64,000 bases of DNA. It comes from Escherichia coli (GTDB taxonomy: Bacteria; Pseudomonadota; Gammaproteobacteria; Enterobacterales; Enterobacteriaceae). Numbering within the stretch: the stretch's first letter is position 1; the number at the start of each line of letters is the position of its first letter. The notes under the pieces are model-generated. The model ran no database searches, was not told the DNA's origin, and saw nothing but the letters and a program-made list of their open reading frames with translations. Positions 59,055 to 62,675 of this stretch are shown in pieces. The stretch lies in assembly GCF_003334765.1 (NCBI RefSeq), contig NZ_QOWT01000015.1; one strand, written 5' to 3'. A program made the position numbers and the translations under genes.

Positions 59055-60326
59055 TTACTCAATCAGCTTCAACAGTGGCGACAAGCATAGCAAAATGCCG
59101 TACAGCAGAATCAGCCAGGCTTTAAATCCGCGAAGTTTTTCCAGTTGTGCGACTTTATAGATCAGGAAAAACGGAATGAGGCACGACACAATACCATATA
59201 ACGGGCTTCCCAACTGAAAGAACACCAGCACCGATACACGAAACGAAACCCAAATCGTCAACGTAATGACGATAAAAGCGCAGATCGCTAGAGTCAGCAC
59301 GCGTGAGTTAATTTTCTTGGTATCAATAATTCGGCTTAACAGATTGAGAATAATGCCTTTAATGGCCTCGTGGAAACCGAGATAAATGCCAAAGAATGCG
59401 GTCAGTACGGCAAAGATATTAAGCACCGTAGAGGTGATATGAATGATATGCCCAGGGATCACCTGCGCGGCCAGCGCCAGTGCTGAGATATTTTGTTCAA
59501 AGGCAGAAACGGCTTCTTCGTGGCTAATTGAGAAGGTAAACGAAAAGGCAAAAAACAGGATCACCGCGATGAGCGTGATATAACTAATTCGGTGGGTACG
59601 CAGCGCGAGCCGGGTTGCCAGTACTTTATCCGCTTCCCGTTTACGATAGGCAATATTCATTGGGTTAAGTACCTGAATAAATACTGCAGAAAAGAAGCAA
59701 AATGGAATGGTAAGCAAGACATCGCGGAAAAAGACGGAGGCTTGCGGGAAGGCGGTTATATTGGCGAAATTCCAGTGCGGGATCATCGCAAAACCGAACA
59801 CGACAATAATCCCTACTTTGACCACCACCATTGGCCCGGAAATCTTAAACAGTAATCGTTCACCACCAGACGCAATCGCCACCAGTACGGCGAAAATAGC
59901 GACTTTATAAAGTAGAGATTGTGAAAGATCGGCATCGGTTAAACCGAAGGTTTTCAGGTACGAGGCGCTGTCGAAAACCACGGAGAGAGAGTAGATAAAA
60001 ATCCCGTGGATAATCATCAAAAAGTAGATAACCCCGAGGAAAATTCCCCAGTTCTTCCCCAGGTAATGACTGATAATATCGGTGTAGTCATTACAGGAAT
60101 CGCTTTCAGAAAGGGTTTTTAAATAAATGTCCTGCACTACCCAGGTGGCAGGATAAGCAATGATCGCTGCGGTAATAAATACCCAAATTCCCTTCAAGCC
60201 AATTTGTACTGGCATCAGCACGGTTCCGGCACCAATCGCCATGCCTATGCATAATAAAACCCAGCCGAAGTCGTAGCGTGTAAACGGCAATTTCTGATTG
60301 TGTTTCGATAGTGTGTTGTGCTGCAT
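59055..60326 (-). CDS. yhjV: Putative amino-acid transporter YhjV (serine/threonine permease-like)
   Basis: 423-aa polytopic membrane ORF from [11 protein letters not shown]; convergent with dppF. Confidence 0.85.
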
Positions 60327-60399
60327 AAAGTCCTGTCCAGAAAGAAGTCGGCCTCGCAAAAATGAATAAACCCAGTTTCTCTTGCGCAACAGGTGGAGA

Positions 60400-60920
60400 A
60401 GTCGAATACGCAGTATGTAAAAAATGAGGCAACAGATTCACTGGGGAGGTCGCGAGGAGGCGCAATTCTACAAAATTGCGCATTTCACTACCAGTCTGGA
60501 GTCAGCCCGGATATGAACTGCAACTATTGCAAATAAAGAAATTAAGCTGGAAGGCATCGCGCAATGAGGAAGATTGCCGGGTGCTGACAGTAAAAAGCAA
60601 TCGTAGAATCAGCGGCAAGCCGGAAAGGTTCCGGTGAGGCGCAATGTTGCGGGGGCTTTATCCCTGGTGGCATTGGTTGCTGGAGAGAGAAAACCCCCGC
60701 ACGTTGCAGGTATGCACCTGACAACACCACGGGGGCTAATCTTGACTCTAGACCACTCAAGAATAGCCGCGAAACGTTGTCATTACAACACAGGCGGCTA
60801 TATGACGTTCGCAGAGCTGGGCATGGCCTTCTGGCATGATTTAGCGGCTCCGGTCATTGCTGGCATTCTTGCCAGTATGATCGTGAACTGGCTGAACAAG
60901 CGGAAGTAACGTGTCATGCG
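60400..60920. repeat. Long direct repeat LDR-D locus (ldrD mRNA leader and antisense rdlD region); boundaries approximate
   Basis: Region carrying the ldrD peptide gene; extent inferred from the known ~0.5-kb LDR unit, not mapped from sequence. Confidence 0.4.
60802..60909 (+). CDS. ldrD: Type I toxin LdrD (35 aa)
   Basis: Translation MTFAELGMAFWHDLAAPVIAGILASMIVNWLNKRK; the 91-aa ORF 60634-60909 is an artefactual N-terminal extension. Confidence 0.85.
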   Translation: MTFAELGMAFWHDLAAPVIAGILASMIVNWLNKRK

Positions 60921-60995
60921 GGCGTCAGGCTGCCGTAATGGCAATTTGCGCCCGGACCAGGCCGCAGGGGGGAAACTCTGCGGCCTTTTTCGTTC

Positions 60996-62675
60996 TTACT
61001 GCGGGTAAGGCACCCAGTCGCCGCCGTTCAGGCGAACGTACGGTTTATCCTGGTATTGAATAACTACTGCATTTGAGTTCTCGGAGACCGGTGCTGTTTG
61101 TGGCAACCCACTGGTGAGTTTTTTCCAGTCAACATTGTCTTCGGTGAAAATCTTGCCATCGAGAACGCGAACCACCAGATCGGAGATAGCCAGGAAGCTG
61201 CTCGGTTGTTCGATGACAATCGGTGCCCCCTGATGCGGTGCCTTCATGCCGAAGAATTTCACCCCAACGGGGACGTCGGTGATAGACGGGCTAGGGATAT
61301 CACGTAGGCCAGATACCTGCATTCTGTCGCCCTTCAGCGCGCCGCCGTGTTCCGGCACCACGACCACCATCACTTTACGACCCGATTTCTCAAGTTCAGT
61401 AAAGAAGGCGTCCAGTTCATCAAAGAATTTCTGCGCCCGCGCTTTGTAATCCGCTGTTTTGCTGACCCCCGGATAATGGTTGCCGTCATGCAGTGGAAGC
61501 GTGTTGTAGAACGTGGCACTACGGCTGTTTTTATCTTTTTCGGTAACGTCCAGCCAGCGGTTAAGCACAGCGGTATCGTCATAAACCGGCGAACCATCAA
61601 AGCCCAGCAAAATAACCGGCAGATTTGTTTGATCCATCAATTCGCTCTGCATGCCGCCATTTTCGCGAACTTCTTTCAAAAAACCGCCGAACTGGCCGTT
61701 ATGTCCCATCATCAGGTGCTGGGTAAAGCCCAGTTTCGAAAGGTTATCAAACAGATAGCAGTCGTTATTTGCCGGTTGATACAGATTAGTGTGCGAAGTC
61801 TGCCCGCAGCTGGCGCGCAGTAAACGGATCGCCGCCGGGCCACTGTAGGAGGTGGCGGAGTTAAAGTTCTTGAACTCAATATCGAAATGCGACCACAGTG
61901 GATGCGACATCAACCCGGCGGCTTCTATATCCGACCAGGAAAGCGAACAGATGTTAATCACCAGTAGTTCAAATGGCTGAGCATCAGCGGGCAGCGAAGA
62001 CGGGAAGGTCGATTTACGTTTCGCCTCCGCGTTATAGAAATTATTCAGCCAGGCGTTAAGGTTCGCCGTTGTTGGCGGTGCAGTTTGTGCGGGCATATCA
62101 CCCACTACCGGTGCGCCACCCGTCGCCGCAACGGTTGCCGCTGCGTTACCACCCGTCGTTGTTACAGTGGTCGTCGGTTGTCCGGCTGGCCACAAGGAGA
62201 AACTTGGTCCCGCCAGGGTAAGTACGTTCAGCCATAGCAGTATGGCAACCACAAAAACGGTAATGCGAATCCATTGTGACAGGAATAACCAGGCCACTAA
62301 TAAAACAAAAATGGCCCCAATCATCTGCCAGTTAATAAAGCGTGTGACAAGGTCGATTAAATAATCGGTACTGAACCCCGCCACCTGCGAACCCTGGCTC
62401 ATTATGCTTTCCGGGCCAGGCAACCAGGTGTCATGCCAGAACAAAGCAAAGCCGATCGGCAGGGCAATCCAGTGGCGCAAGCGATGCAGGCTGTAGCGCG
62501 GAAGGGGCATCAGCAGAAACGCGGCAAACACCAAATTGAGGAGCGGATGGAAGTTAAGATATCCCGCCCACAACAGGCCGAACTTAACCAGAAAATAGAA
62601 GTTCCAGCCGGAAAGGCCGCGCCAGTATTGCCAGAGGGAAGAAGGCATGGCGGTATTTTGCGTAAATTGAGTCAT
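60996..62675 (-). CDS. bcsG: Cellulose biosynthesis protein BcsG
   Basis: 559-aa ORF; N-terminal TM segments plus periplasmic alkaline-phosphatase-like domain. Confidence 0.92.

Follow-up and report, generated by a model that had tools for sequence, protein, structure and literature searches.

Organization of the ldrD/rdlD locus

The window, by which we mean the whole stretch of 64,000 nt of Escherichia coli DNA that was analyzed, carries a single ldrD/rdlD copy, located between yhjV and bcsG. The genes and signals of the locus are listed below in window coordinates.

59055-60326, minus strand: yhjV, flanking gene
60604-60609, plus strand: ldrD promoter, -10-like box TAGAAT, 7 nt upstream of the start site at 60616
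60616-60993, plus strand: ldrD mRNA, about 378 nt (start from dRNA-seq, 3' end inferred from the terminator)
60690-60753, minus strand: rdlD antitoxin RNA, 64 nt as annotated
60760-60788, minus strand: putative rdlD promoter, read by eye, with -35 TTGTAA (60788-60783), a 17-bp spacer and -10 TATTCT (60765-60760)
60793-60797, plus strand: Shine-Dalgarno-like GGCGG of ldrD, seen by eye 5-9 nt ahead of the ATG
60802-60909, plus strand: ldrD coding sequence, ATG to TAA, 35 aa and stop
60959-60993, plus strand: ldrD intrinsic terminator, stem 60959-60986 (11 bp, 8 G-C pairs) followed by a T-run
60996-62675, minus strand: bcsG, flanking gene

The yhjV-bcsG intergenic region (60390-60995, 606 bp) was 100% identical at the DNA level to MG1655 and to many other strains. 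Compared with LDR-D of K-12 (b4453/b4454), there was no difference in the DNA, the flanking genes, the peptide or the antisense RNA, and the order of the K-12 neighbourhood is dppF, yhjV, ldrD, bcsG, bcsF. When the region was used as a query, all 5426 complete E. coli genomes gave a match, at least 80% of the query was held in 5394 of them, and the median number of related places per genome was 4. A PADLOC search gave no match. Taken as a whole, the locus is very probably the chromosomal ldrD/rdlD type I toxin-antitoxin module of E. coli K-12 (LDR-D repeat), which is the best explanation of these data. The preliminary description had named the same module between yhjV and bcsG from the sequence alone, and the identity to MG1655, the Pfam and Rfam matches and PDB 5LBJ all agree with it. 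The module is already known and ordinary, and its RdlD placement is now exact. The K-12 ldrD/rdlD pair was reportedly described by Kawano et al. in 2002 and is said to have been in the K-12 annotation since then.

The LdrD peptide and its annotation

The peptide encoded by 60802-60909 is MTFAELGMAFWHDLAAPVIAGILASMIVNWLNKRK. It was identical in 35/35 residues to the NMR structure PDB 5LBJ ("Small toxic polypeptide LdrD"), and the Pfam family PF13940 (Ldr_toxin) covered it over the full model (1-35/35, E=1.2e-25, 89.7 bits), on residues 57-91 of a 91-aa open reading frame (ORF). Pfam, PDB 5LBJ and RefSeq agree on the coding sequence, so that the intact 35-aa gene read earlier from the sequence was confirmed. 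For the identical sequence, overproduction was reported to be toxic, and the peptide was described as a membrane-associated helix (PMC8309996, PMC8406316).

LdrD resembles the Fst/Ldr superfamily, whose signature was given in PMC7472228, in its transmembrane helix with PxxxG (PVIAG in LdrD) and in the conserved Trp before a charged C-terminus (WLNKRK in LdrD). A search of NCBIfam found no Ldr-specific match, and the Fst model NF033608 scored 13.8 bits, below its cut-off of 26. The link to Fst is therefore at the superfamily level only. The RNA arrangement differs as well: in Fst/RNAII (par of pAD1) the antitoxin converges on the 3' end and the two RNAs share a terminator, unlike in ldrD/rdlD.

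In the ldrD frame, the list of ORFs gave only the 91-aa GTG ORF at 60634-60909, because the list reports the longest start after a stop. The preliminary description had called this ORF misleading; Ldr is its last 35 residues only. It had also warned that automated annotation would miscall or miss ldrD, which was true in part. Extended forms of 91, 80, 78, 65 and 55 aa were found on 410, 58, 1, 19 and 316 contigs, respectively (about 800 contigs), often as "hypothetical protein"; on the other side, RefSeq/PGAP named ldrD correctly in the best 20 listed matches. Public records contain the exact 35-aa LdrD for at least 995 contigs. An ENA gene call of 836 aa (P0052), located on an 8-kb contig, fell into one cluster (90% identity) with the extended LdrD of 55 aa and is probably a chimeric or run-through call. 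In practical terms, public records often miscall the ldrD start, and at least one PGAP record lacks the antisense RNA: the rdlD feature was absent from one PGAP record of K-12 and present in the curated NC_000913.3.

RdlD, transcription start sites and the sense/antisense duplex

The antisense RNA had been expected on the opposite strand in the ldrD leader, with a covariance-model search proposed as a check. The search was run, and Rfam RF01813 (rdlD) matched at 60688-60753 on the minus strand over the whole model (1-66/66) with 87 bits, above the gathering score of 50 (E=1.3e-18). The ncRNA annotated at 3700136-3700199 of NC_000913.3 maps to the 64 nt at 60690-60753, which confirmed the expected position. 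Over its full length, RdlD is complementary to the leader of the mRNA, at a distance of 49-112 nt upstream of the ldrD ATG; its span overlaps neither the Shine-Dalgarno (SD) sequence nor the coding sequence. The predicted fold of RdlD is a long hairpin followed by UUUUCU (-29.5 kcal/mol, z = -3.98), with about 11-16 nt at the 5' end left as a single-stranded tail.

Transcript mapping, another of the proposed checks, was provided by published dRNA-seq start sites of both RNAs. Among the entries of Table S2 in PMC4681348, FWD_(I)-3698159 corresponds to window position 60753, the 5' end of RdlD, and RVS_(II)-3698296 corresponds to 60616, the 5' end of the ldrD mRNA. These positions were converted from U00096.2 coordinates with an offset of 1977 between genome versions, anchored on the ldrD/rdlD coordinates of NC_000913.3. 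Both sites are flagged YES in that table, and the flag apparently stands for "recorded in RegulonDB", judging from the main text. The promoters were read by eye against these published start sites. The -10 box of rdlD ends 7 nt before its start site. A consensus promoter scan of the region (threshold 9/12) returned no promoter; the putative one of rdlD is absent from the scan list because its hexamers reach 8/12. For ldrD, the consensus scan was likewise empty and no convincing -35 box was found.

A published duplex between the two RNAs was also placed on the window:

60713-60746, no strand assigned: RNase III-derived sense/antisense duplex, p19-captured dsRNA cluster S-307 (3,698,166-3,698,199; PMC7373196)

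This placement, which assumes U00096.2 coordinates, corresponds to RdlD nt 8-41 and lies within the sense/antisense overlap. In the same study, the ldrD/RdlD RNAs were described as a duplex cut by RNase III with a dsRNA peak in vivo, and a "short" ldrD RNA species was seen in the rnc mutant (PMC7373196).

Comparison with other Ldr loci

The preliminary description had suggested a comparison with the ldrA-C copies, and in this comparison LDR-A, -B and -C of K-12, which are tandem repeats between kdsA and chaA, aligned with LDR-D. The architecture was the same, with strong conservation from about 60600 to 60995; between the -10 box and the terminator, the alignment columns were 85% identical on average. 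The leader, the stems of the RdlD hairpin, the SD sequence and a block of the 3'-UTR were nearly invariant. What differed was the 5' tail of RdlD, together with the mRNA loop that it matches, and the peptide, with 20/35 residues shared by LdrD and LdrA. In addition, one extra base before the SD sequence (ACAACACAGG vs ACAACAAGG) brings the leader TTG frame into the ldrD frame in LDR-D.

To extend the comparison, a genome collection and metagenome contigs were scanned, and together they yielded 59 distinct full units. The scan of genome contigs with a 15-nt RdlD core was unspecific, with about 9 real Ldr loci among the 120 matches listed and most of the rest chance matches; a longer gapped pattern on metagenome contigs gave 47 real loci. 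The same dppF/yhjV-bcsG site was found in Escherichia sp. E1V33, Citrobacter sedlakii and Pseudocitrobacter faecalis. In Escherichia sp. E1V33 (L096:3692-4570, NZ_RHJI01000013.1), the yhjV-bcsG site held two tandem ldrD-type units, with peptides beginning MTLAELSMAFWH and MTLAELGMAFWH. An E. coli-type ldrD (beginning MPFAELGMAFWH) was also found in an assembly labelled "Bacillus sp. EB106-08-02-XG196" (L106, NZ_JABWSY010000055.1), on a contig of 503 bp with a coverage of 0.66, and it is almost certainly contaminating Escherichia DNA.

Across the 59 units, the positions T-A-G-x-A-T of the ldrD -10 box were at least 90% conserved, and in the putative rdlD promoter the TTG of the -35 box and A2 and T6 of the -10 box were conserved. 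The SD sequence GGCGG was kept in most units, with GATGG in a small subgroup. The RdlD hairpin was paired at 89.1% on the RdlD strand vs 80.1% on the mRNA strand, and it contains two invariant G.U pairs that would be A.C mismatches on the other strand. The terminal hairpin and U-tract of RdlD are thus present, with a strand-specific pairing.

A different peptide in the same RNA scaffold

On the metagenome contig Ga0256408_1000015 (L126:2330-3700), three tandem units lie between dppF-like and bcsG-like genes. The Ldr/Rdl RNA scaffold is complete in these units, and beside each of them Rfam rdlD scored 52-60 bits, at or above the gathering score; the peptide that they encode is a different hydrophobic one of 30 aa, MTLNEALLLAVVTSIVGPIVVALVRHFFKF. 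This peptide had no Pfam or PADLOC match. Unannotated homologues, 80% identical, were found on plasmids of Klebsiella aerogenes (NZ_CP142847.1 32064-32153, L171:2501-2590) and Lelliottia (NZ_CP141607.1 21301-21390), and a 49-aa version starting at the leader TTG is recorded as "hypothetical protein" in Klebsiella sp. It looks as if the toxin had been swapped in these units while the antitoxin/leader scaffold was conserved. On the K. aerogenes plasmid, pYD-K10_1, a strong Rfam isrC match of 146.7 bits (L171:1476-1598, minus strand) lies inside the annotated coding sequence of an IS3-family transposase, and this same IS element cuts short the leader of the 30-aa-peptide unit next to it.

Predicted structure of the ldrD mRNA

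The ldrD mRNA was predicted to be highly folded (-182.3 kcal/mol, z = -7.26). Three elements of this fold are used below.

60619-60635, plus strand: predicted 5'-terminal hairpin (helix 1), 92.6% paired in the 59 loci, 3 pairs changed on both sides
60732-60770, plus strand: predicted leader hairpin (helix 6; 60732-60745 with 60757-60770), 96.3% paired in the 59 loci, 4 pairs changed on both sides
60917-60952, plus strand: conserved 3'-UTR block, predicted partner of the initiation region 60776-60813 and of 60638-60644

To evaluate the structure, it was mapped to the alignment of the 59 units. With the predicted partners, 87.4% of the cells were paired, compared with about 41% (37-45%) when the partners were slid by 1-3 columns; the tested structure is the minimum-energy fold of the window's own sequence, which favours it over the slid controls. 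Pairs changed on both sides numbered 37 vs 23.7 in shuffles, and 0/500 shuffles reached the observed value, in a set of units that are related to one another and not independent. The consensus of RNAalifold from the 59 units differed from, and was poorer than, that from 12 units, and the named structure was tested instead.

The best-supported helices were the 5'-terminal hairpin, the leader hairpin, three helices between the initiation region and the 3'-UTR, and the terminator (helix 12, 96.6% paired with compensatory changes across the 59 loci). The three long-range helices (helices 7, 8 and 9; 60776-60813 with 60917-60945), whose 5' side begins shortly before the SD sequence and includes the AUG, were paired in 96.5, 90.1 and 81.6% across these loci, respectively, also with compensatory changes. 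The covariation supports a long-range pairing that would sequester the translation-initiation region of ldrD, in a structure that was derived from the window's own sequence. The predicted pairing of 60638-60644 with 60946-60952 (helix 2) is invariant in the 59 loci, so that covariation is uninformative about it and the pairing lies beyond this kind of evidence. In the leader hairpin, a conserved TTG lies in the 5' arm. The loop (60746-60756) is variable, with differences between LDR-A, -B, -C and -D, and its sequence is complementary to that of the RdlD 5' tail.

Reading frames in the leader

Upstream of the ldrD ATG, two features bear on translation of the leader.

60731-60735 and 60742-60744, plus strand: SD-like GGGGG and conserved leader TTG, inside the RdlD target, with the TTG exactly opposite the RdlD 5' tail
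60634-60801, plus strand: in-frame upstream extension that gives the 91-aa ORF, outside the Ldr family domain

The leader TTG was present in 57/59 units, a count to be read with the fact that ACGGGGGC formed part of the search pattern by which the units were gathered. In all 57 units that have it, the TTG frame reached or passed the ldr ATG, at a TTG-ATG distance of -57 to -63. The two units without the TTG are on metagenome contigs (L170:695-1092 and L167:1389-1786) and have GGGGGCAATCCTATCTC there; the ldr frame is broken in the former (beginning MTLTEVLYYCLARSG) and intact in the latter. When each unique leader was counted once, the TTG frame was open to the ldr ATG in 39/39 and the other two frames in 1/39 and 32/39. 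Such an open frame is compatible with a coupling ORF, and would speak for one only weakly because one alternative frame is so often open too. The variability by codon position was 0.38/0.58/0.71 in the leader, which is not coding-like, vs 0.58/0.30/0.79 in the ldr coding sequence.

The TTG of the window lies at -60, in frame with ldrD. The TTG frame was in frame with ldr in 27 of the 39 unique leaders, and this is the commonest arrangement of Ldr loci, LDR-D included. In LDR-A, -B and -C of K-12, the TTG frame ends at a TGA that overlaps the ldr ATG. Judged by the sequence comparison, the 91-aa ORF is in part this open leader frame, whereas no ORF is conserved over its portion upstream of -60; in other species, the ldrD frame opens only from -141, -117 or -72. 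As a gene, the 91-aa ORF was rejected, since Pfam covers only its last 35 residues and the GTG at 60634 is not conserved. A 25-aa ATG ORF at 60644-60721 was also rejected as a gene, its start or frame being lost in several homologues. In LDR-C of K-12 (L003:2151-2546) and in Kluyvera (L084), a one-base deletion in the G-run of the leader (TGC-GGGGC) breaks this ORF and makes the predicted stem one pair shorter.

Comparison with hok/sok

The organization of the locus recalls hok/sok/mok of R1. In both, the toxin is small, acts at the membrane and is encoded by an mRNA that is stable and extensively folded, and the antisense RNA, which is short and unstable, is directed against the leader and not against the ribosome-binding site of the toxin. 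For both, a leader reading frame and a fold-back of the mRNA onto itself with participation of its 3' end have been proposed. The two toxins belong to unrelated families, however. In ldrD, unlike in hok, the predicted 3' partner pairs directly with the SD sequence and AUG of the toxin, and the leader frame of LDR-D is in frame with the toxin, whereas that of hok/sok/mok overlaps the toxin out of frame. Membership in hok/sok was rejected, since the score of RF01794 (sok), 24.2 bits (E=0.006), is below its gathering score of 59. This weak match, at 60651-60804 on the plus strand, lies on the strand of the ldrD leader and ends at the ldrD ATG, and it agrees with the T1TAdb paper, which notes that RNA features place some Ldr/Rdl loci in the Hok/Sok class.

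A proposed mechanism of repression by RdlD

RdlD blocks the translation of ldrD (PMC4147584, PMC8309996, PMC8406316), and a 2021 review described how it represses translation as unknown (PMC8309996). According to a hypothesis of Gerdes and Wagner cited in reviews, a leader ORF named "ldrX" would be translationally coupled to ldrD and would be blocked by RdlD (PMC4147584, PMC8167048). The conserved leader and the predicted structure suggest one form that such a control might take. The full-length ldrD mRNA would be translationally closed, with its SD sequence and AUG paired with the conserved 3'-UTR block, and ribosomes that initiate at the leader TTG (60742), after the GGGGG run, would open ldrD translation. 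The TTG start would sit in a hairpin whose loop and 5' arm form the binding site of the single-stranded 5' tail of RdlD. Because this proposed target includes the 5' arm, the binding of RdlD would mask the leader start, and it would also make a substrate for RNase III. Since the TTG is in frame with ldrD, RdlD would then control either a 55-aa N-extended LdrD or a ribosome run that unlocks the start sequestered by the 3'-UTR, and there would be no separate "ldrX" peptide. We consider this last reading, of a control through the in-frame TTG with no "ldrX", rather improbable and put it forward tentatively. In favour of a leader start at the TTG, gene callers independently chose it on 316 contigs (the 55-aa form). 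Against such a start, one of the two units without the TTG has an intact ldr.

In a rival explanation, RdlD acts mainly by exposing the ldrD mRNA to RNase III, which would cleave it and lead to its decay; the leader would then not be translated, and its open frame would be incidental. We regard this as doubtful, yet as a possibility to be taken seriously. The p19-captured 21-nt duplex within the overlap and the slight rise in the half-lives of ldrD and rdlD in the rnc mutant (PMC7373196) agree with it, and type I antitoxins generally remove the active transcript through RNase III (PMC11997105); the lack of a coding-like substitution pattern in the leader and the other frame open in 32/39 leaders also speak for it. 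Nevertheless, the changes of stability in the rnc mutant were described as slight (PMC7373196), and reviews place Ldr/Rdl under inhibition of protein synthesis. Decay also leaves unexplained why a conserved TTG and its upstream G-run lie exactly in the target of the RdlD tail.

The in-frame leader could also mean that the real product is longer (91, 65 or 55 aa, with the start at GTG 60634, ATG 60712 or TTG 60742) and that the 35-aa call cuts the gene short. No stop interrupts the frame from 60634 on, the TTG at -60 is in frame in 27/39 unique leaders, and the extended forms are found in public annotation on about 800 contigs. This explanation is nonetheless very unlikely: the Pfam match is limited to the last 35 residues, conservation of the GTG at 60634 and of the ATG at 60712 is limited to the D-type loci of Escherichia, in LDR-A, -B and -C of K-12 and in other units the frame that the TTG opens is not that of ldr, the 20-residue extension is not conserved as a protein, and the 35-aa peptide is the form that was shown to be toxic and solved by NMR. 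Still less credit is due to the 25-aa ORF (60644-60721) as a regulatory leader peptide. Although it starts with ATG, reaches into the 3' part of the RdlD target and, in K-12, is conserved in LDR-A, -B and -D, its ATG is replaced by ACG, GTG or GCG in several homologues and a 1-nt deletion breaks its frame in LDR-C of K-12 and in Kluyvera. Moreover, with 81 nt between its end and the ldrD ATG, direct coupling to ldrD is not possible, and the conservation of its sequence is explained by the invariant stems (helices 3-4).

The comparative structure and the leader-frame results are modest additions to a well-known module. Masking of the in-frame leader TTG by RdlD, if true, would settle how this RNA represses a start codon that it does not touch. 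The comparative data turn this open mechanistic question into specific mutations, in the leader TTG and G-run and in the pairing between the initiation region and the 3'-UTR.
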